This document shows, in pieces, positions 3,652 to 46,123 of a stretch of 48,408 nucleotides of DNA (position 1 is the first letter of the stretch; every line of letters begins with the position of its first letter). This DNA comes from Candidatus Woesearchaeota archaeon (GTDB lineage Archaea; Nanobdellota; Nanobdellia; Woesearchaeales; GW2011-AR9), in NCBI GenBank assembly GCA_018303045.1, contig JAGVYX010000013.1, positions 1-48,408 on the forward strand, read 5' to 3'. A program made the translations under genes and the position numbers. The notes under the pieces are model-generated. The model was not told where the DNA came from. It saw nothing but the letters and a program-made list of their open reading frames with translations, and ran no database searches.

Positions 3652-3691
3652 TAGTATAGATAATTCTGATAATTAGAGCATATTTTTGCGG
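3652..3691 (+). promoter_or_regulatory. conserved ~38-nt box just after the tatD stop codon; copy 1 of 2
   Basis: tagtatagataattctgataattagagcatattttt matches 34435-34473 (tagtatagataattctgttaattagagcacatttt) at about 34 of 36 positions. Both boxes start 6-10 nt after a plus-strand stop codon and precede 200-270 nt of non-coding sequence. Confidence 0.5.
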
Positions 3692-7136: not shown

Positions 7137-7703
7137 ATGATTGTTACAATTTCTGGCGACCCCGGCAGCGGCAAAAGCACTGTTGCGGAAATCTTAGCTA
7201 ACAAGTTTGAGGCTGAAAGAGTGTATGCCGGCGGCATTTTTAGGGAGATGGCTAAAGAAAAAGGAATGGCATTGGAAGAATTCCTTAAATATACTGAAAA
7301 CCATCCGGAGATTCACCGCCAAGTTGACGAAAGAATAAGAGAAAAAGCTCTGGAGATAGATCAAGAAGGACTAACAGCCATTGTTGAAGGCCGCGTTCAT
7401 TTTCATTTCCTGCCGAAATCCTTCAAAATTTTCCTAAAGGTTTCCCTTGATGAAGCCGCCAGAAGAATTTGGAAAGATCTAAATAATAAGGAAGCTTCTC
7501 TTTCCAGAAATGAGGAAGCCGTTAGTTCTCTCCAAGAACTGAAGAAAAAGATTAAACAGCGCATTAAAACCGACCAGGAGAGGTACAAGGAATTATACCA
7601 TATCGATATTCTGGATGAATCTCAATTTGATTTAGTTATTGACACCACCAATTTAACCCCAGATCGAGTTATACAGGAGATTCTGGATAATTTTCCATTA
7701 TGA
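7137..7703 (+). CDS. cmk: archaeal-type cytidylate (CMP) kinase
   Basis: A P-loop sits at the extreme N-terminus (MIVTISGDPGSGKST). The length of about 188 aa and the RE.SE..RYK-like block (DQERYKELYHIDI) match archaeal Cmk. Confidence 0.7.
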   Translation: MIVTISGDPGSGKSTVAEILANKFEAERVYAGGIFREMAKEKGMALEEFLKYTENHPEIHRQVDERIREKALEIDQEGLTAIVEGRVHFHFLPKSFKIFLKVSLDEAARRIWKDLNNKEASLSRNEEAVSSLQELKKKIKQRIKTDQERYKELYHIDILDESQFDLVIDTTNLTPDRVIQEILDNFPL

Positions 7704-8077
7704 AAGAATCGGTCCAAGAAACGCCAGCATTATATTCAGTCTCAGTCAAGGACAGATTTTGCATCAAGGCCGTTCGAGTGTGGAAGAACCCGGCCCATGC
7801 CCGACTGGAAATTAAGCCGATAAGAAAATCATCCCGTTATTCCTTGGAAAGACTAATTCTGGAAGGAGGGTATGCTAAATCGGTTTATCGAAAAGTTGGA
7901 AAATCCGGCAATTACAGTATAACGCCCCTGGACGATTTAGACAGTTTATTGAAAGAGTTAAAATATTTCGGCAAGAAATTTAAGGGCATTTTTGCAATAA
8001 ACCAGCAGCTTAATGAAGTTTATTTGAAAGATTATTTTTCGGATTTAAGCTATTACTGGAACAGAAAAATAATTTAG
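7700..8077 (+). CDS. hypothetical protein, translationally coupled to cmk (ATGA overlap)
   Basis: 125-aa ORF. Its last 22 codons plus the TAG stop are tandemly duplicated downstream. Confidence 0.5.
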   Translation: MKESVQETPALYSVSVKDRFCIKAVRVWKNPAHARLEIKPIRKSSRYSLERLILEGGYAKSVYRKVGKSGNYSITPLDDLDSLLKELKYFGKKFKGIFAINQQLNEVYLKDYFSDLSYYWNRKII

Positions 8078-8148
8078 GATAATGAAGTTTATTTGAAAGA
8101 TTATTTTTCGGATTTAGGCTATTGCTGGAAAAGAAAAATAATTTAGGA
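8011..8148 (+). repeat. 69-bp x2 tandem duplication spanning the gene 3' end and stop codon
   Basis: Copy 1 is 8011-8079 and copy 2 is 8080-8148, with 3 mismatches. The period is 23 codons, so copy 2 is in frame and ends in its own TAG at 8144-8146. Confidence 0.9.
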
Positions 8149-8241
8149 TCATCGTTCGTATATTGCGGCGGCGGGGGTAGTTGGAAATTTTATTTAACAC
8201 AACAAAAAAGCTTATAAATCATGCTCTAAACAAGTTGAATT

Positions 8242-8931
8242 ATGTCTGAGACTATCGAAAAACATGATTTTATTGAACTGAATTATACCGGCCGGTTAAC
8301 TGACGGCACGGTCTTTGACACTACCGAAAAGACGGTCGCTGAACAGAATAATCTGCCTACCCAGGGAATGATCTTTGCTTCGCAGATTATTTGTATTGGG
8401 GAAAACCAGGTTTTGCCCGGGCTGGATAAAGAATTGGTTGGCAAAGAAGTGGGCCAGGAATATGAAATTACCCTCTCGGCTGAACAGGCTTTTGGCAAAC
8501 GCGATATCAAGAAAATGAAAATCGTGCCGATGAGCACCTTTATTGAGCATAAAGTCCAGCCGCAGCCGGGGCTGCAAATTGATGTGGATGGCGAGCGGGG
8601 CATTGTCGCCCGTGTTTCAGGAGGAAGAATCATTGTTAATTTCAATCATCCGCTGGCTGGCCGAGAAGTAATGTATTCTTTTAAAATAGTCAGGAAAATT
8701 ACTGATGCCAGTGAAAAAGTTAAATCTTACCTTGGTAATGTGTTAAGAATTCCTCGGGAAAAAGTGGAAGTGAAGGTTGCTGATAATCAAGTTGAAATTA
8801 CTTTGCCAGTAGATTTTCCCGCAGTTTTAACTGATTTGCTAACCAAAAAACTGCTGGAAGTAACGGGCGTTAAGGAAGTTCTGTTTAAGAAAAAGGAAGT
8901 AAAAGCGGAAGAGAAGCCGGCTGGTAAATAA
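8242..8931 (+). CDS. FKBP-type peptidyl-prolyl cis-trans isomerase (long archaeal type)
   Basis: The N-terminal FIELNYTGRLTDGTVFDTT, the LPGLDKELVGKEVG block, and NHPLAGREVMYSF are characteristic of FKBP/SlyD-like PPIases. Confidence 0.8.
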   Translation: MSETIEKHDFIELNYTGRLTDGTVFDTTEKTVAEQNNLPTQGMIFASQIICIGENQVLPGLDKELVGKEVGQEYEITLSAEQAFGKRDIKKMKIVPMSTFIEHKVQPQPGLQIDVDGERGIVARVSGGRIIVNFNHPLAGREVMYSFKIVRKITDASEKVKSYLGNVLRIPREKVEVKVADNQVEITLPVDFPAVLTDLLTKKLLEVTGVKEVLFKKKEVKAEEKPAGK

Positions 8932-13232: not shown

Positions 13233-13928
13233 TTACAAACTAAATTTAAATAACTGTTGAGCAAGAAATCCCCACCATTTATGGTTGGGGAGGAGGTCAA
13301 TTTTACCTCTTAAACCATAATTGCAATATCTTTTAATCGCGCATTCATCGCATTTCGGCTTAATTGGGCTGCAGATAGTTTGCCCGTGCCCTACCAACAG
13401 CTTATTGGCATTTATCCATTCCTCTCTGGGAACGGTTCTCTGCAGCTCTTGTTCGGTCTCTTCAGGAGTTTTAGTGTCAATCCATCCTAGTCGGTTAGCG
13501 ATACGATGAACATGAATGTCCACAGCAATCGTGGATTTATTAAAAGCATAATTTAAAATACAGTTAGCAGTCTTCCTGCCAATGCCCGGCAGCAAGATCA
13601 GTTCTTCAAACGTCTCGGGAACTTTTCCCTGATACTTTGTTTGAATTATCCTGCTTAATTGCTTTAAATGTTTAGCTTTTACCCGATGAAAGCCAACACG
13701 ATAAATCAGCTGCTCGATTTTCTCTACTGGCAAGTTAACATAATCTTTCGGATGCGGATAGTTCTTAAACATTTCTTTAACAATGGGAATCGTTGTAGTA
13801 TCCTTAGTTCTGGCGCTCAGCATGGTCATTACCAGCAGTTGAAATGGAGTATAATTATTAAGCAGCTCCAGCATCGTTGGCTGGTGAGTTTGCTCTAGTA
13901 TTCTGAAAACTGGTTTTACTGGATTCAT
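13233..13928 (-). CDS. nth: endonuclease III (HhH-GPD base-excision glycosylase)
   Basis: The HhH motif LLPGIGRKTANCIL, the catalytic VDIHVHR region, and a C-terminal 4-Cys cluster (CSPIKPKCDECAIKRYC) are present. Confidence 0.9.
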   Translation of the reverse strand: MNPVKPVFRILEQTHQPTMLELLNNYTPFQLLVMTMLSARTKDTTTIPIVKEMFKNYPHPKDYVNLPVEKIEQLIYRVGFHRVKAKHLKQLSRIIQTKYQGKVPETFEELILLPGIGRKTANCILNYAFNKSTIAVDIHVHRIANRLGWIDTKTPEETEQELQRTVPREEWINANKLLVGHGQTICSPIKPKCDECAIKRYCNYGLRGKIDLLPNHKWWGFLAQQLFKFSL

Positions 13929-14094
13929 AGATGAACAAAAATAGATCCTACATTAAAATTGATCTATAGCGCAGGACATAATTATTTGATCATTTACCTG
14001 TGCTATATTCCGAAAGATACAACTATTTTAATTAATTATTTGTGTCTTTCGCTATACATTTGCTATACCTATTAAAGTATTACTAACAATATTT

Positions 14095-15869: not shown

Positions 15870-16454
15870 ATGAACAATAAAAGGGATGAAAATATAATTA
15901 AAAAAATTGGAAATCTGGGGCTTTACTTGATTCAAGGCGATATTACTCAAATTCCAACTGATGCTATTATGGCGGCAATAAATTCTAATGGCTTGTGGTT
16001 TGGTAAAATTGATGGAGCAATTCAAAGAGTTGCCGGGAATCAATATCATTTACAAGCTGTCGCAGCTATGCCGTTATCTAATCTGCAGGCTGTTGTTGCC
16101 AGAGGCAGCGCCGCAAATCACGGCGGAAAATTCAATGATGTTGTTTTTATTGTTGATGATTTGCAATCTTCATTAGATAAAGTTGTTTATTCTGGTTTAG
16201 AAGCTGCGCATGAAGAAGGATATAATCAAGTACTGATTCCGGCAATAAGAATGAGAGTCATGGCTGGCGCAGTGGAAGAATCGCCCCAAGAAACCATTGC
16301 TAATCTGGGAAGGGGAATAGAAGAATTTATGCGCAACTATGGGCAGCAAACCCGTTTGGAAAAATTAACTGTTGTAGTCCATAGAGACCAGAACGCTGTC
16401 AGGCAATCAGCTGCGGACTGGCCAGCTTATAACTTGCTGGGTCAGAAAATTTAA
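15870..16454 (+). CDS. macro domain (ADP-ribose binding/processing) protein
   Basis: LIQGDITQIPTDAIMAAINSNG matches the macro-domain N-terminal motif. Confidence 0.7.
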   Translation: MNNKRDENIIKKIGNLGLYLIQGDITQIPTDAIMAAINSNGLWFGKIDGAIQRVAGNQYHLQAVAAMPLSNLQAVVARGSAANHGGKFNDVVFIVDDLQSSLDKVVYSGLEAAHEEGYNQVLIPAIRMRVMAGAVEESPQETIANLGRGIEEFMRNYGQQTRLEKLTVVVHRDQNAVRQSAADWPAYNLLGQKI

Positions 16455-16514
16455 TATAAGAGGTTCGCCATTAACTTGCTGGGCCAGAAAATTTAATATA
16501 AGAGGTTCGCCATT
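16431..16514 (+). repeat. 42-bp x2 tandem duplication spanning the gene 3' end and stop codon
   Basis: Copy 1 is 16431-16472 and copy 2 is 16473-16514, with 1 mismatch. The period is 14 codons, so the second TAA (16494-16496) is in frame. Confidence 0.9.
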
Positions 16515-22031: not shown

Positions 22032-22077
22032 TTGTTTTTGATGCCCGTCCCTTGGGGCGGTTGGGATTTTTATTTCA
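22032..22077. promoter_or_regulatory. conserved hairpin box abutting the start codon; copy 2 of 2
   Basis: ttgtttttgatgcccgtcccttggggcggttgggatttttatttca; see 384-428. Confidence 0.45.
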
Positions 22078-24563: not shown

Positions 24564-24630
24564 TCTGTTTCTCCATTATTAATGCAGTTCTATTTATCCT
24601 CATTCTCCCTAATTTTGAGTTATGCTTTTT

Positions 24631-24721
24631 TAACTTCCTTATTATACTGAAAGTTAACTTCTTTTATACTGAAAGTTAACTTCTTTATTATACTGAAAGT
24701 TAACTTCTTTTATACTGAAAG
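24631..24721. repeat. tandem repeat of alternating 24/22-nt units (taacttcYtt[at]tatactgaaagt x4)
   Basis: Units are at 24631-24654, 24655-24676, 24677-24700 and 24701-24721. The array lies between the small Cys-ORF stop and the copA promoter region. Confidence 0.9.
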
Positions 24722-25225: not shown

Positions 25226-25882
25226 TCAAACCCACTTCCTAGCTATCGTCCCCGGCCCTCTTCTGCCGACAATCGGCCCATCATCATAAACTAATCCTGC
25301 CGCCGCCATATTTTCCCGAGCCATTCGCGCGCAGGTATACGTAGCTAAAACCCCGGAATCTTTCATCACTCGATACATTTCGATAAATAATTCCCTAGTC
25401 CACATCTCCGGAGAAGTCTTAGGCGAGAAGGGATCATAAAAAATAGCATCAAATTCTTGATTTTTTAATTCTTTCACTTTATCTTTAACATCACCCAATA
25501 AAACTTTAACTATAACTTTGCCTTGTCTTAATTCCAAATGATTTTTATTTAACTGTTTATAATACTGAAAAAAAGCAATGGGTGGATTGACTTCCTGGAT
25601 TTTAGCCAGGATTTCCGGATCTTTCTCAATGCCGATAACTTCAATTTGGCAATTCGGATTGCTTTCCAAAGCCACTTGAATGGCCATGGCTGAATTATAT
25701 CCTAAGCCAAAAAACATATCTAGAATTTTTATCGAGCCGGTTTTAGCCCGTTCCTTGATCTGGCAGGGTTCCGCATATTTTTTTAACGCTTCTTCCACTG
25801 CTCCAGTTTGCGAATGATATGTTTCATTCACCTCTAAATTAAGAAAAGATTCAGTATTGTCGGCAGTGATAATTTTTTTCAT
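25226..25882 (-). CDS. MnmC-like SAM-dependent methyltransferase (COG4121/DUF752 type)
   Basis: ETYHSQTGAVEE, FGLGYNS, and DAIFYDPFSPKTSPEMW...ATYT are present. Confidence 0.7.
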   Translation of the reverse strand: MKKIITADNTESFLNLEVNETYHSQTGAVEEALKKYAEPCQIKERAKTGSIKILDMFFGLGYNSAMAIQVALESNPNCQIEVIGIEKDPEILAKIQEVNPPIAFFQYYKQLNKNHLELRQGKVIVKVLLGDVKDKVKELKNQEFDAIFYDPFSPKTSPEMWTRELFIEMYRVMKDSGVLATYTCARMARENMAAAGLVYDDGPIVGRRGPGTIARKWV

Positions 25883-25978
25883 ATTAAACTAATCATTCCA
25901 CCGGTGTTTTCACCAGTGGTTCAACACCAGTTCCATTCGCGCAAACTCACGATGTTCGTAGCTTGCTTGTCAGCAAGA

Positions 25979-26109
25979 GTCAAAATGTTCAGCTCCCGCC
26001 ATCAGCGGGCGATCCGAGGCGAAGCTGAGCATGCCGCCGGTCGTTTCCAAAGGAAACTCACGAACGTTAGTGACTGGATGTGGCCAGTGATGATCGCGAA
26101 CATTTTGAC
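25979..26109 (+). ncRNA. structured RNA candidate of unknown family (131 nt, multi-helix junction closed by a 12-bp helix)
   Basis: The closing helix pairs gtcaaaatgttc (25979-25990) with gaacattttgac (26098-26109). Four hairpins lie inside: 25995-26009, 26010-26043 (12 bp), 26043-26057 and 26065-26096 (13 pairs). G-U wobbles are tolerated only on the plus strand. GC content is far above the surroundings, a T8 run follows, and the overlapping ORFs look non-protein. Confidence 0.45.
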
Positions 26110-26116
26110 AAATAAT

Positions 26117-26128
26117 TTTATTTTTTTT
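26117..26128 (+). terminator. oligo-T tract (tttatttttttt) following the RNA candidate
   Basis: Archaeal transcription terminates at oligo-T, and this tract starts 8 nt after the closing helix. Confidence 0.35.
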
Positions 26129-26157
26129 CTTGTCACATTTTGAATTTGAAAAAAAAT

Positions 26158-26262
26158 GTGGGGCGGCGTCTCCTGTTAAACTCCCTGAGCGATAGCGAAA
26201 GTGCAACGTGGTGCGAACCGCAGTGAGCAAGTTTTTGCGTTGCTGAGACTTTAGGAGCTAAC
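26158..26262. ncRNA. second GC-rich non-coding patch (possible small RNA or RNA remnant)
   Basis: It is GC-rich (ggggcggcgtctcc...gtgcgaaccgcagtgagc) and has a 6-bp gcaacg/cgttgc helix. T runs flank it on both strands. The fold is less convincing than for 25979-26109. Confidence 0.25.
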
Positions 26263-26338
26263 ATAGTTTTTTATTGCTTTAATTCTGATCAATCTCTGTG
26301 TAGCAGACTAGATTTGAGTCGTTAGGGGGGAGTTCCGT

Positions 26339-26875
26339 TTAGAGTCTTCCGTTATGCGTCGCCGTTGATACTATGGAGAAAATGTCTTTTTCCTCTTTTA
26401 ATGCTTGAAGTACATTCTTGAACATGAATGCTCCCTCAAATCCGGTTTTTTCTTCAATGCTTAGAAGCTCAATAATGTGACCAATGAATTCCACTGAATG
26501 TTCTCCGTATTTGTTTAGCGGATCATATCTTTTCAATTTTTCAGGGCTGGTAAACTTCAACTCACATTTTTGCTGTTCCGCTTTATTTTTGAACGGTTGA
26601 ATTTTATCATACATAGAGAATAAGTAATTTATGAATTCCAGAGTTAGTTCTCGGTCATGCTCTTTCTTAATGAGTAAGTCTATTACCCAATGGATATGTT
26701 TTGGCGTTCTAACTACTCTTTTGGTAAACTTATCTTTGTATTTGACAACAATGTCTAAGTCTGGATTTTTTCCTTTAGAACCCTGAAACACGCCAATAAC
26801 TGCTCCATCTTGTAGGTGAAATTCTTTGAAAGCTTGGACTTTATCTTTCTTTTTGGGTTTCCATTCCAGAACCAT
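26339..26875 (-). CDS. putative Type II restriction endonuclease (by position only)
   Basis: 178-aa ORF divergent from the RHH-methyltransferase operon. A possible D...ELK (PD-(D/E)xK-like) motif sits at YD...CELK. I recognise no family. Confidence 0.35.
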   Translation of the reverse strand: MVLEWKPKKKDKVQAFKEFHLQDGAVIGVFQGSKGKNPDLDIVVKYKDKFTKRVVRTPKHIHWVIDLLIKKEHDRELTLEFINYLFSMYDKIQPFKNKAEQQKCELKFTSPEKLKRYDPLNKYGEHSVEFIGHIIELLSIEEKTGFEGAFMFKNVLQALKEEKDIFSIVSTATHNGRL

Positions 26876-26960
26876 AAGAGCAGGAATCAGAAAACTTTAT
26901 AAAAGAGTTATGCATATTACTATTTATTAATAAATATTAGTAATGGGGAGGGGGGGTAAA

Positions 26961-27101
26961 ATGGGGAAAGTTCCACTGAATATCACTGTTGACAAAGAAG
27001 TTCTGGATAAATTTAAAGATTTCTGTGAAAATAATGATATGAAGGTTTCTACAAAGATAAATACTCTTATGAAAGAGTCGGTTGAAGGTAATGGGAAATG
27101 A
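26961..27101 (+). CDS. unannotated 46-aa ribbon-helix-helix (CopG-like) protein, probable controller of the R-M operon
   Basis: My own translation is MGKVPLNITVDKEVLDKFKDFCENNDMKVSTKINTLMKESVEGNGK. It has a beta-strand then helix-helix pattern and a gggagggggg SD upstream. Its TGA overlaps the methyltransferase ATG (ATGA). Confidence 0.6.
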   Translation: MGKVPLNITVDKEVLDKFKDFCENNDMKVSTKINTLMKESVEGNGK

Positions 27102-27898
27102 AAACAACTCATAAAATTATTATTGGAGACGCTTTAGAAAAGCTAAAAGAGATTCCCGATGAAAGTGTAGATTTAGTTTTTGCTGATCCGCCTTATAATA
27201 TGTCTAAGAAAAAAGGGCTGGGGTGGAAATACAGCAAGCATGTTACCATGCAGGAAGGATGGGATATTTTTACTAAAGATGAATTTTTTCAATTTAATGT
27301 AAAGTGGATTAAAGAGTGTATGAGGGTGTTAAGGCACGGCGGTAGCTTGTGGGTTTGTGGTTCTTTTCATAATATTTATCAACTGGGGCATATCATCCAG
27401 AATTTCACAGATCTGAAAGTAAATAATCATATAGTTTGGTTTAAGCCAAATGCCCAACCAAATATTACTTGTCGTTTTTTTACTGAAAGTGCTGAACATC
27501 TTATTTGGGCTTCTAAAAATGGAAATGGGATGAGATGGACATTTAATTATGAAGATACTAAAAATCAGATTTATGATGATATAAACCCAAAAGGAAAGCA
27601 AACAAGAAATGTCTGGAGCATTCCATTAACGCCCAAAAAAGAAAAATGGGCTGGAGAACATCCAACGCAGAAGCCAGAAGAATTACTAAGAAGGATAATA
27701 TTGGCTTGTACTAAGCCAGGAGAAACAGTTTTGGATCCATTTGTTGGCTCTGGAACTACCTCTGCGGTTGCTTTGACTATGAGAAGAAATTCTGTGGGGA
27801 TAGAAAAAGAAGAGAAATATCTTAAAGTAATTGAAAAAAGATTAAAACCGGCGCAGAAAACATTAAATGAAGAAGTAAATATACAAATATTCAATTAA
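27098..27898 (+). CDS. beta-class DNA amino-methyltransferase (N6-adenine or N4-cytosine)
   Basis: The N-terminal motif IV is FADPPYN and the C-terminal motif I is DPFVGSGTT. This order is characteristic of the beta class. Confidence 0.9.
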   Translation: MKTTHKIIIGDALEKLKEIPDESVDLVFADPPYNMSKKKGLGWKYSKHVTMQEGWDIFTKDEFFQFNVKWIKECMRVLRHGGSLWVCGSFHNIYQLGHIIQNFTDLKVNNHIVWFKPNAQPNITCRFFTESAEHLIWASKNGNGMRWTFNYEDTKNQIYDDINPKGKQTRNVWSIPLTPKKEKWAGEHPTQKPEELLRRIILACTKPGETVLDPFVGSGTTSAVALTMRRNSVGIEKEEKYLKVIEKRLKPAQKTLNEEVNIQIFN

Positions 27899-28104
27899 TT
27901 TTTCTCGGTTAAAGCCAACACGATCAATATACCAGCTAAGATTAAAATTCCGGTTGTTGCGAAATTTTCAACCTGCTTTCTTCTTACTTCACAAGGGGTT
28001 TCCTCTATCCATCTCTGGGTCTTACTGATCAACTGTTTAGTATTGATATATACTCCACTATCACCGAGCGGAACAATATTTTTTTCTATAATTTCTGATT
28101 TCAG
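27895..28104 (-). CDS. possible 69-aa tail-anchored protein with AbrB/MazE-like N-terminus (non-ATG start)
   Basis: The ORF reads (L)KSEIIEKNIVPLGDSGVYINTKQLISKTQ...TTGILILAGILIVLALTEKN. A strong GGAGGT lies 5 nt upstream of the CTG at 28104. An in-frame TAA lies just upstream, so only CTG, ATT or ATA could initiate. Confidence 0.3.
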   Translation of the reverse strand: MKSEIIEKNIVPLGDSGVYINTKQLISKTQRWIEETPCEVRRKQVENFATTGILILAGILIVLALTEKN

Positions 28105-28114
28105 GTTTTACCTC

Positions 28115-28309
28115 CTACTTTCTATTTAGTTCTTTTAGTAACAACCATGCACCAATACCAACTATTGCACCTAAAGTAAACTTTTCTAAATCTGTTAATT
28201 GTTTATTCTTAATTTCTAGGGGTAATTTATTTATCCCTTCCATTGCCAGTTTTTTTCTGGCTTCTACGATCATATTGTACTCTTCATCCGAAACTTTTAT
28301 TGTTGGCAT
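28115..28309 (-). CDS. small protein with RHH-like N-terminus and hydrophobic C-terminal tail
   Basis: 64 aa: TIKVSDEEYNMIVEARKKLA fits a strand-helix pattern, followed by FTLGAIVGIGAWLLL. Confidence 0.45.
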   Translation of the reverse strand: MPTIKVSDEEYNMIVEARKKLAMEGINKLPLEIKNKQLTDLEKFTLGAIVGIGAWLLLKELNRK

Positions 28310-28537
28310 TTTTAGGTATTTTGGTAACCTCGGTGGTTAAAAGTTACCCTGGTATTTGAATCTTGTGGTAAAAATAGATTAAAAATTCCAAGTTGTTATC
28401 TTTACGTCTCGTTTTTTAGTTTTTTGTTTAGTTAAATTTATGAATTCCCCCCGTTAAAGTAATAAAAAATTTTGTTTAGCATACGTTAGATTCAGTTTCT
28501 TATCACAGATAATCTTAAATAAGTTGCGCTAAAAATA

Positions 28538-28903
28538 TTGCTTATGGGGGTTATACAGCCAATTGATGCAATTATCTTTGATGCTGATGGCACCGGCATT
28601 AGAAAACCCAGTCCGGCGGCGATAGCTTACTCCTTAGCGCAACTAAAAGTAACCGGCAACAGAACTATGCATGTTGCTGATACAAGGGGAGATTTAATTG
28701 CATCCAGAGACGTTATCGTTCCAGGAAAGGAGTTTGAAGGCGGCCAGAATCTGTTGATGGTTGGCGCTGCCTGGGGCTATGAAGGCCGGGAATTGTTAGA
28801 GAAAGGCGGGGAACTGCCTGATGGCGCTAAAGTAGAATTTGATTACATCATTGACCAGCCGGAAGAACTGGTGGCTATTGTTCAAAAACATTGGCGAGCT
28901 TAA
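28538..28903 (+). CDS. cap-less/truncated HAD-like protein (possible gene remnant)
   Basis: AIIFDADGTG (motif I) runs almost directly into KPSPAAIAYSL (a motif III-like Lys). The motif IV region is degenerate (HVADTRGDL). The ATG at 28544 is the likely start. Confidence 0.45.
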   Translation: MLMGVIQPIDAIIFDADGTGIRKPSPAAIAYSLAQLKVTGNRTMHVADTRGDLIASRDVIVPGKEFEGGQNLLMVGAAWGYEGRELLEKGGELPDGAKVEFDYIIDQPEELVAIVQKHWRA

Positions 28904-29541
28904 ACCTTCTCCGCCCTTTTTTTCCTCACCAGCAGTTCAGCAACTTCAGGAAACATTTCCGTTTCTTCGCCAATATCATAGGGGCCGTATACTTTAAGGT
29001 CCTTCCAGACAAAGCTGGGTGTGGGATGAATAAAGCGGATCTTGGTTTTTTCCGCAGTTGCTGGCTTGTTTTCTTCGATCTTTTCTGTAACGACCATTTT
29101 TTTGGGCGCAGGATAATCAGCCATTCCCGGCAATTCTCCCTTAAATAAAGGGAATAATATCTGCTGGCGAGCGTGGTTAAACCGATCCAAAATGTTCTCA
29201 TAGAACTCTTTTTCTTCACGAAGCATGGCTCCGGTGTCGATTAATTCTGATCTGGTTTTGCTTTTGTTAAGGGCTATATCGATAATTTTATTTTCCCGCA
29301 ATTCATAAATTTCTTTTAATATTCGCCTGATGCTGCGCAGTTCATACTCTAATTTATCCTTCTCTCCGGCAGCGAAAATATTGGAGCTTTTTTCCTTCTC
29401 CTGCAATAAGGCTTGCTTTTCCCGGACATAAGAAACCACATCAATAAAGAAAGTGTTTTCTAAATTCTGCAGTTCGCCGCGTTTTTTTTCATTTCTTAAG
29501 ATGTCATACAACGTTTCCAGCGTAATTTTTATCGAGTCCAT
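28900..29541 (-). CDS. GINS complex subunit (Gins51-type)
   Basis: The N-terminus LYDILRNEKKRGELQNLENTFFIDVVSYV, a helical A-domain, and a C-terminal B-domain-like KVYGPYDIGEETEMFPEVAELLV are present. Confidence 0.7.
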   Translation of the reverse strand: MDSIKITLETLYDILRNEKKRGELQNLENTFFIDVVSYVREKQALLQEKEKSSNIFAAGEKDKLEYELRSIRRILKEIYELRENKIIDIALNKSKTRSELIDTGAMLREEKEFYENILDRFNHARQQILFPLFKGELPGMADYPAPKKMVVTEKIEENKPATAEKTKIRFIHPTPSFVWKDLKVYGPYDIGEETEMFPEVAELLVRKKRAEKV

Positions 29542-34434: not shown

Positions 34435-34473
34435 TAGTATAGATAATTCTGTTAATTAGAGCACATTTTCGTG
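34435..34473 (+). promoter_or_regulatory. conserved ~38-nt box just after the tmk stop codon; copy 2 of 2
   Basis: See 3652-3691. Confidence 0.5.
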
Positions 34474-34552
34474 AAAACTATCTGACGATAACTCATTAAA
34501 TTTATGTATCCCAATCAAGGGAATTATCTATATAACTCCGTGAACAAGCATA

Positions 34553-46018: not shown

Positions 46019-46104
46019 TATAAAAGCAGAAATATGAAGTTATATAAAGTTATAAAAGCAGAAATATGAAGTTATATAAAGTTATAAAAGCAGAAATATG
46101 AAGT
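46019..46104. repeat. 32-bp tandem repeat x2.7 (tataaaagcagaaatatgaagttatataaagt)
   Basis: Two perfect copies lie at 46019-46050 and 46051-46082, with a partial copy at 46083-46104. Confidence 0.9.
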
Positions 46105-46123
46105 GCGAATATTTAGTGCTTTA

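Follow-up and report, generated by a model that had tools for sequence, protein, structure and literature searches.

The 456-nt spacer at 25883-26338 of a Candidatus Woesearchaeota contig (48,408 nt, analyzed as a whole and here called the window) raises the question of whether a strongly folded, GC-rich stretch of intergenic DNA is an RNA gene and, if so, of which kind. The spacer lies between two minus-strand ORFs, one flank being a gene for an MnmC-family (Methyltransf_30) methyltransferase (25226-25882, minus strand) and the other a 178-aa gene without a Pfam family (26339-26875, minus strand). A Gins51 gene (28900-29541) was taken as the mark of an archaeal context, the contigs identical to the window come from Rifle aquifer metagenomes, and Woesearchaeota gave the best genome matches. 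An earlier note on this DNA had described 25898-26109 as a highly structured element that could be either a divergent 5S rRNA or an undescribed RNA.

Composition, coding potential and fold of the element

The GC content was about 0.54 (0.54-0.55) at 25900-26100, compared to a window mean of 0.39 and to 0.22-0.33 in the spacers of the window. The description of a GC-rich spacer in a low-GC genome was thus borne out (approximately 54% at 25898-26109 and 39% in the window). The translations of its ORFs, 79 aa on the plus strand and 86 aa on the minus strand, had been judged implausible as proteins, and they were indeed without real homologues: neither had a match in Pfam or NCBIfam, the sole match of the 86-aa minus-frame ORF among 5.8 billion proteins was its own copy (P0121), and a search of this ORF against 1.8 billion representatives returned repeat-inflated junk only. 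When the element was compared, as protein, with the homologous copy described below, 7 nucleotide differences led to 4 amino acid changes in 31 codons, and neither codon periodicity nor a third-position bias was found among the differences between the two copies. A protein-coding gene or pseudogene was rejected for want of homologous proteins and of synonymous-biased substitution; a remnant of a MazG-like gene (tblastn) and a duplicate of the MnmC-like gene were likewise rejected, as the searches gave no match. The element at 25898-26109 is non-coding.

Several sequence features reported earlier were found as described. A T8 run (26121-26128, plus strand) lies 3' of the fold, AAACTCACGA occurs twice as a direct repeat (at 25943 and 26054), and ATGTTCG at 25952-25958 is complementary to 26097-26103 and offers an alternative partner for the 3' strand of the closing helix. 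Another T8 run, on the minus strand (26150-26157), is preceded by the GC-rich GGAGACGCCGCCCC and is the probable terminator of the transcript of the 178-aa gene, judging from its sequence; similar GC-rich motifs followed by a T-run form a family elsewhere in the window (CGNCNCTTGSGGYGGTWGGGATTTTTATT; 399-427, 8166-8194 and 22046-22074), members of which may be terminators or small structured elements.

The minimum free energy (MFE) fold of 25979-26109 consists of a closing helix around four hairpins (-50.4 kcal/mol, RNAfold). Its z score was -3.24, none of 200 shuffled sequences was as stable, and its MFE was the lowest of 1,488 segments of 131 nt scanned on both strands over 48 kb. The 12-bp closing helix is a perfect inverted repeat (25979-25990 with 26098-26109), as had been stated. 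However, z scores of -3 or lower were found in 20 of the 1,488 scanned segments (1.3%), and the window holds 8 perfect inverted repeats of at least 11 bp with a spacing of 40-160 nt, versus 1.7 in shuffled sequences, so that the fold is unusual but not unique. The strongest z score of the scan (-6.1 with 20 shuffles, -4.5 with 200) belonged to an AT-rich spacer at 13924-14054 (plus strand), which lies between two minus-strand genes and contains three perfect hairpins.

The claim that the wobble pairs work on the plus strand only did not hold for the window copy. On the minus strand the fold is equally good (-50.0 kcal/mol, z = -3.07), and the core in the window contains a single G.U pair in 44 pairs, compared to a mean of 4.8 in shuffled sequences. 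The hairpin proposed at 25898-25919 is present but pairs better on the minus than on the plus strand, since its C.A mismatch on the plus strand is a U.G pair on the minus strand, and the extended region 25883-26149 as a whole also folds better on the minus strand (z = -4.87) than on the plus strand (z = -2.28).

Repeats occur elsewhere in the window as well. A 35-nt repeat, TAGTATAGATAATTCTGWTAATTAGAGCAYATTTT, is found directly after two stop codons (3652-3686 and 34435-34469); its copy at 34435-34469 also forms an arm of an inverted repeat of 29 nt (34438-34532), and the core TATAGATAATTC forms an inverted repeat also in a contig binned as Patescibacteria (L021, 5124-5189). Tandem repeats of 32-69 nt occur in spacers at 24630-24721, 8011-8148, 16430-16513 and 46019-46114, and the ArsR/copper-ATPase spacer that holds the repeat at 24630-24721 varies in length among population contigs (L001-L004). 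Most start codons are preceded, at a distance of 25-35 nt, by a CTTTAWAWA-like motif, and this implies that the mRNAs are for the most part leaderless. The MnmC-like gene (25226-25882) is without this motif.

A single homologue and its conserved pairing

The sole homologue was found in contigs L113 and L114 of another Woesearchaeote from the same aquifer (Rifle groundwater). In L114 the element sits in a 495-nt spacer, with a cupin gene on one side and ZPR1 on the other; its flanks are unrelated to those in the window, and nothing but the element is shared; the core is thus conserved between two genomes without synteny. Two blocks of the window, 25889-25913 and 26014-26108, form a contiguous 120 nt in L114, with 92% identity and 10 differences in 120 aligned nt, all ten of which are transitions. 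The first of the two blocks, block A (CTAATCATTCCACCGGTGTTTTCAC, 25889-25913, plus strand), is the 5' part of the shared element and aligns with L114 4119-4095 with 3 transitions. The GC content of the shared core was 51-54%, versus 37-39% in both hosts. Eight population copies of the window locus had identical spacers, with an overall divergence of approximately 0.07%, too low to be informative.

The 100 nt between the two blocks (25914-26013, plus strand) are found in the window copy only, being missing from L113 and L114 and from 10 population copies of that locus. This segment supplies the AGTGG partner of CCAC in the hairpin at 25898-25919, the hairpin at 25962-25977, the 5' strand of the closing helix (25979-25990) and hairpin 1 (25995-26009); the window copy alone can therefore form the five-way junction. 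Two of the earlier proposals accordingly stand for the window copy and fail for the homologue: the five-way junction is the MFE fold of the former but is not conserved in the latter, and the two upstream hairpins are present in the window, whereas the homologue is without the segment that supplies them. The 3' strand of the closing helix (26098-26109, plus strand) pairs perfectly with 25979-25990 in the window and, less strongly, with block A in both homologues. The reverse complement of the 100-nt segment showed a weak collinear alignment to the core (P about 0.01-0.02). The L114 element alone folded no better than shuffled sequences (z = -0.04). We redefined the conserved unit as 25889-25913 plus 26014-26108 and built a two-sequence covariance model (R2) from it.

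Pairing within the redefined unit was assessed helix by helix. Hairpin 2 (CCGAGGCGAAGCYGAGCAUGCCRCCGG, 26014-26040, plus strand) has 9 pairs, including one G.U, and differs from L114 by two substitutions, both at unpaired positions (one in the loop, one in a bulge). Hairpin 3 (GUUUCC-AAA-GGAAAC, 26043-26057, plus strand) is identical in both homologues. The irregular hairpin 4 (GUUARUGACUGG-AUGUGG-CCRGUGRUGRUC, 26066-26095, plus strand) carries four substitutions, three from U-A to U.G and one from G.U to A-U, and plus-strand pairing was kept in all four. A helix between the 5' and 3' ends was predicted by RNAalifold for both homologues (GGTGTTT at 25903-25909 with GAACATT at 26098-26104); in the helix count it comprises 9 pairs, of which every cell is paired and 2 show one-sided changes. 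In the four-helix model as a whole, 66 of 66 cells were paired and 6 pairs varied one-sidedly yet stayed paired, the other 4 substitutions being located at unpaired positions. With the same helices on the minus strand, pairing fell to 87.5%, and each of four hairpin 4 pairs is disrupted in one of the two sequences.

As a random transition at a paired site leaves pairing intact on a given strand in about half of the cases, the retention of pairing in 6 of 6 cases corresponds roughly to P = 0.02, a value that comes from two distinct sequences, with a shuffle control without power and helices that were partly picked with both sequences in view. The search for homologous spacers in relatives, which had been put forward as a test of covariation, thus yielded one homologue but no double-sided compensatory change between the two sequences. 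On the plus strand each copy is followed by a T-run, a T8 in the window and, about 20 nt after the L114 element, a T5; on sequence grounds the T8 run at 26121-26128 is a candidate archaeal oligo-T terminator of a plus-strand transcript. Taken together, the one homologue lends modest support to a plus-strand structure.

Genomic setting and searches for further copies

In L089, which holds the closest relative of the MnmC-like gene (83% protein identity), the order is dCMP deaminase, Gins51, MazG-like gene and MnmC, with MnmC located 13 nt after the MazG-like gene and with no spacer ahead of it. Other MnmC relatives have a DUF4258 toxin pair or other genes at the same position, and the approximately 3 kb from Gins51 to the MnmC-like gene in the window (25883-28899) were common to none of the compared relatives. 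By comparison with L089, L092, L094 and L097, this site is a variable hot spot in Woesearchaeota, its contents being a MazG-like gene, a DUF4258 toxin with a zinc-ribbon partner, other small genes or a restriction-modification cassette; in the window it also holds a truncated HAD-like ORF (28538-28903).

The cassette in the window (26171-27888), recognized by Pfam and homology, consists of two genes, encoding the 178-aa protein (minus strand) and an N4/N6 DNA methylase (plus strand), and a 168-nt non-coding tail. It was found with 87-89% nucleotide identity in three other Woesearchaeota MAGs (L009-L011); homology ends exactly at 26171 in L010 and L011 and starts at 26326 in L009, and the exact end marks 26171-27888 as a mobile restriction-modification cassette. 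The tail (26171-26338; L010 1979-2140 and 2237-2283; L011 1725-1892) travels with the cassette at 91-93% identity, is GC rich and folds, and a partial inverted copy is located about 100 nt past the cassette end in L010; it may be a structured 3' element or a recombination end of the cassette. Past the cassette, elements bounded by inverted repeats were seen in L011 (1893-2023; 17-nt arms, 131 nt overall) and L010 (2412-2527; 11-nt arms, 116 nt overall). These were rejected as relatives, because their sequences are not similar to that of the window element and repeats of this kind are frequent in these genomes.

The element itself lies between the cassette and the start codon of the MnmC-like gene. 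It was absent from 80 loci around homologues of the 178-aa gene and from 9 loci around MnmC homologues, and likewise from the corresponding, syntenic position in the closest relatives of each host; the L114 site upstream of ZPR1 was also variable among relatives. Absence from syntenic sites is compatible with an RNA gene and, equally, with mobile or relic DNA.

Searches of larger collections gave no further copy. A minus-frame peptide scan of JGI metagenomes found L113/L114 and a plus-frame peptide-pattern scan gave no match, and in 241 million JGI metagenome records the element was present nowhere beyond L113/L114. It was not found in IMG/VR by DNA-pattern or peptide-pattern scans, and the 15 matches of the viral pattern GTTAGTGA..GTGATGATCG were all attributed to chance. 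BLAST against phages returned chance-level 32-nt matches (E = 1) and BLAST against plasmids returned none. The single-sequence model R1 and the two-sequence model R2 recovered no further members in approximately 650 kb of DPANN loci; neither the window nor the compared loci contained the element a second time, and the protein database had no other copy with the ORF. One weak similarity concerned L042, where the 5' portion of a 16S rRNA gene of Woesearchaeota (7571-8480) contains a 93-nt insertion at model position 637 (about 8193-8285, z = -3.6). This insertion shares 25 nt with the antisense strand of the element (E = 0.096) and a hairpin with a swapped pair, and it was rejected as a homologue because the similarity was not significant and the structure model did not recover it.

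Candidate families, competing readings and known systems

The Rfam scan that the earlier note had named as the check on novelty gave no confident match to a known family. Rfam 15 matched nothing in the whole window at gathering thresholds, and at an E value of 10 or lower, in 25700-26450, in the 166-nt slice 25960-26125 and in the L114 spacer, only chance-level matches (S774, ceN113 and ZFAT-AS1_3) were obtained and RF00001 was not among them. The absence of RF00001 from both homologues bears directly on the proposal of a divergent 5S rRNA, which has in its favor the size of about 120-130 nt, the pairing of the 5' and 3' ends, the fact that rRNA genes are often unlinked in DPANN genomes, and short strings with a local resemblance to 5S loops C and E. 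The last of these resemblances was lost in the homologue: GUGAUGA in the window is GUGGUGG there, its A residues being replaced by G, as in an ordinary helix in which U-A becomes U.G, and this change removes the C-box, k-turn and loop E readings alike. In architecture, four hairpins within the closing helix of the window copy (three in the core) give a five- or four-way junction, as opposed to the three-way junction of 5S rRNA; in distribution, the element is confined to two lineages, absent from relatives and rare in metagenomes, as opposed to a universal presence of about one per genome. The Rfam model finds 5S rRNA in >200 of 208 complete Nanobdellota genomes, including 123 Woesearchaeales (bioRxiv 10.64898/2026.05.13.725050). 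As RF00001 thus routinely detects Woesearchaeales 5S rRNA, a real 5S gene should have been detected here, and we consider this identity negligible in probability.

Other families were tried and rejected. ARAGORN found 0 tRNA or tmRNA genes in the whole window, and the loop of hairpin 3 is only 3 nt. For a C/D box sRNA or k-turn RNA the only match was a 16.7-bit chance match to a nematode snoRNA; the GA dinucleotides are GG in the homologue, and no D' box is located 12 nt downstream. For an H/ACA sRNA, the ACA overlaps a helix end (26108-26110), the interior is a multihairpin junction and not a pocket, the 5' strand of the lower stem is missing in the homologue, and Rfam gave no match. Signal recognition particle RNA, RNase P RNA, riboswitches, ribozymes and group II intron domains were likewise without an Rfam match. 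Inspection by eye revealed no convincing bulge-helix-bulge motif that would make the 100-nt insert an intron. Convergent 43-aa ORFs are present at both loci, but a type I toxin-antitoxin system was rejected as the peptides are unrelated.

We tentatively favor, as the likeliest of the readings considered, a small stand-alone accessory RNA gene of an undescribed family on the plus strand. Transcription would start at about 25870-25910, in AT-rich DNA overlapping the 5' end of the MnmC-like gene, although no CTTTAWAWA promoter consensus was found ahead of the element on this strand, and RNA polymerase would stop at the T8 run at 26121-26128. The RNA would fold as three hairpins (26014-26040, 26043-26057 and 26066-26095), with pairing of the 5' and 3' ends closing the junction. 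In the window copy, the 100-nt insert would give the 3' strand a new partner, with which it pairs perfectly over 12 bp, and would contribute three further hairpins, which makes this copy look like a large five-way junction. The element would be part of the accessory genes that aquifer Woesearchaeota exchange horizontally and not of the translation apparatus, and we assume a role as a trans-acting or protein-binding small RNA. Of the earlier suggestion of an undescribed RNA, then, the RNA itself is possible and has modest plus-strand support, but the architecture described for it needs a 100-nt segment that the homologue lacks.

The main alternative, which we consider somewhat less likely, is that a mobile or relic DNA fragment without RNA function was dropped into the two genomes by horizontal transfer, be it a non-autonomous transposable element, the terminus of an integrated element or a site of single-stranded DNA recombination or replication; its hairpins would then act as DNA or not at all, and the window copy would be a nested insertion or a partial inverted duplication. 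Consistent with this, the DNA around both copies is lineage specific and the sites are variable (the window copy being beside the restriction-modification cassette), the copies are 92% identical despite their unrelated flanks, the stems are almost purely Watson-Crick (1 G.U in 44 pairs) and fold equally on both strands, and the copies differ by a 100-nt indel of which the reverse complement resembles the core. However, terminal inverted repeats, a target-site duplication and canonical attC core sites are all missing from the shared ends, there is one copy in the window and no second ORF-bearing one in the protein database, and Pfam scans of the neighbors showed no transposase or integrase beside either copy. 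The 6 of 6 substitutions at paired sites that suit the plus strand only, and the T-run after both copies, also speak against this reading; strand-specific wobble tolerance would, at the same time, fit a single-stranded DNA structure.

The same substitutions bear on two further readings. That the element has no function, being a chance GC-rich palindromic stretch shared through very recent descent of a DNA fragment, would agree with z scores of about -3 in 1.3% of scanned segments, with the abundance of inverted repeats of at least 11 bp in this genome, with a fold of the homologue that is no better than random, and with ten transitions in 120 nt, which could be neutral drift. We consider it improbable, given a GC content that exceeds that of both host genomes by 12-15 points, an MFE below that of every other scanned segment of the window, the absence of pair-breaking changes from hairpins 2 and 3, and the retention of pairing on one strand in all 6 changes at paired sites. 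Less probable again is a minus-strand 5' leader of the MnmC-like mRNA, regulatory or not, left when the operon promoter was lost after an upstream insertion. It would account for the MnmC-like gene having no CTTTAWAWA within 70 nt of its ATG, unlike most genes of the window, and is in line with the position of MnmC 13 nt after the MazG-like gene in the closest relative, with the z score of -4.87 for the minus strand of 25883-26149 and with a minus strand free of T-runs from 26109 to 25883. In L114, however, the element has no gene after it on that strand, substitutions disrupt four hairpin 4 pairs on the minus strand, no riboswitch or leader family was matched, and the relatives of the gene are without such a leader.

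An extended form of the RNA gene reading, which we regard as rather unlikely in full, is a new family of about 120 nt with a four-way junction that moves horizontally and in which a 100-nt insertion rebuilt a stronger closing helix. If true, this would be an RNA gene behaving like a mobile element in DPANN archaea, a group with tiny genomes in which non-coding RNAs are almost unstudied, and a non-core structured RNA exchanged beside defense cassettes would point to a new accessory function to be sought in these symbionts. If real, the RNA would be a new small-RNA family of limited distribution and not a new kind of system. The practical gain of the analysis is that the 5S idea was removed and the conserved unit redefined, and that R2 can be used on Woesearchaeota assemblies and Rifle metatranscriptomes.

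Among known systems, integron attC sites, including those reported in archaea, are strand-specific folded sites of 57-141 nt that follow a small cassette gene. The element resembles them in following a small gene (cupin in L114) amid variable gene content, but its orientation to the preceding gene differs between the copies and no integrase was seen. In a pattern scan, the RYYYAAC/GTTRRRY core sites were not at the ends of the element (the only nearby GTTRRRY is at 26175, outside the element, and RYYYAAC is at 25919), and an attC site was rejected. With MITEs and IS200/IS605-derived elements it shares a size of 120-230 nt, richness in hairpins, unrelated sites in two genomes and a nested 100-nt indel; it differs in the lack of terminal inverted repeats at the shared ends, of a target duplication and of a nearby transposase and in its single copy in the window, and a MITE was rejected because the 12-bp inverted repeat lies within the shared element, and L114 has only one of its two arms. 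The likeness to a DPANN rRNA gene insertion (the 16S gene in L042) consists of the 25-nt similarity, which is antisense and not significant.

Closer in appearance to a gene for a small RNA, 5S rRNA is matched in a core of about 120 nt with pairable ends, in being stand-alone and GC rich, in the T-run that follows and in the strings like loops C and E; the differences lie in the absence of a covariance match, the four- or five-way junction, the unconserved loop E-like purines and the occurrence in two lineages at accessory loci. The Hgc RNAs of Methanocaldococcus are orphan archaeal small RNAs encoded in GC-rich islands of AT-rich genomes; they come from hyperthermophiles and are conserved within the genus. 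The element is like them in being an intergenic GC-rich island with a stable fold, a candidate oligo-T terminator and no assigned family, and unlike them in belonging to a groundwater DPANN archaeon and in being non-syntenic and, in appearance, horizontally distributed.
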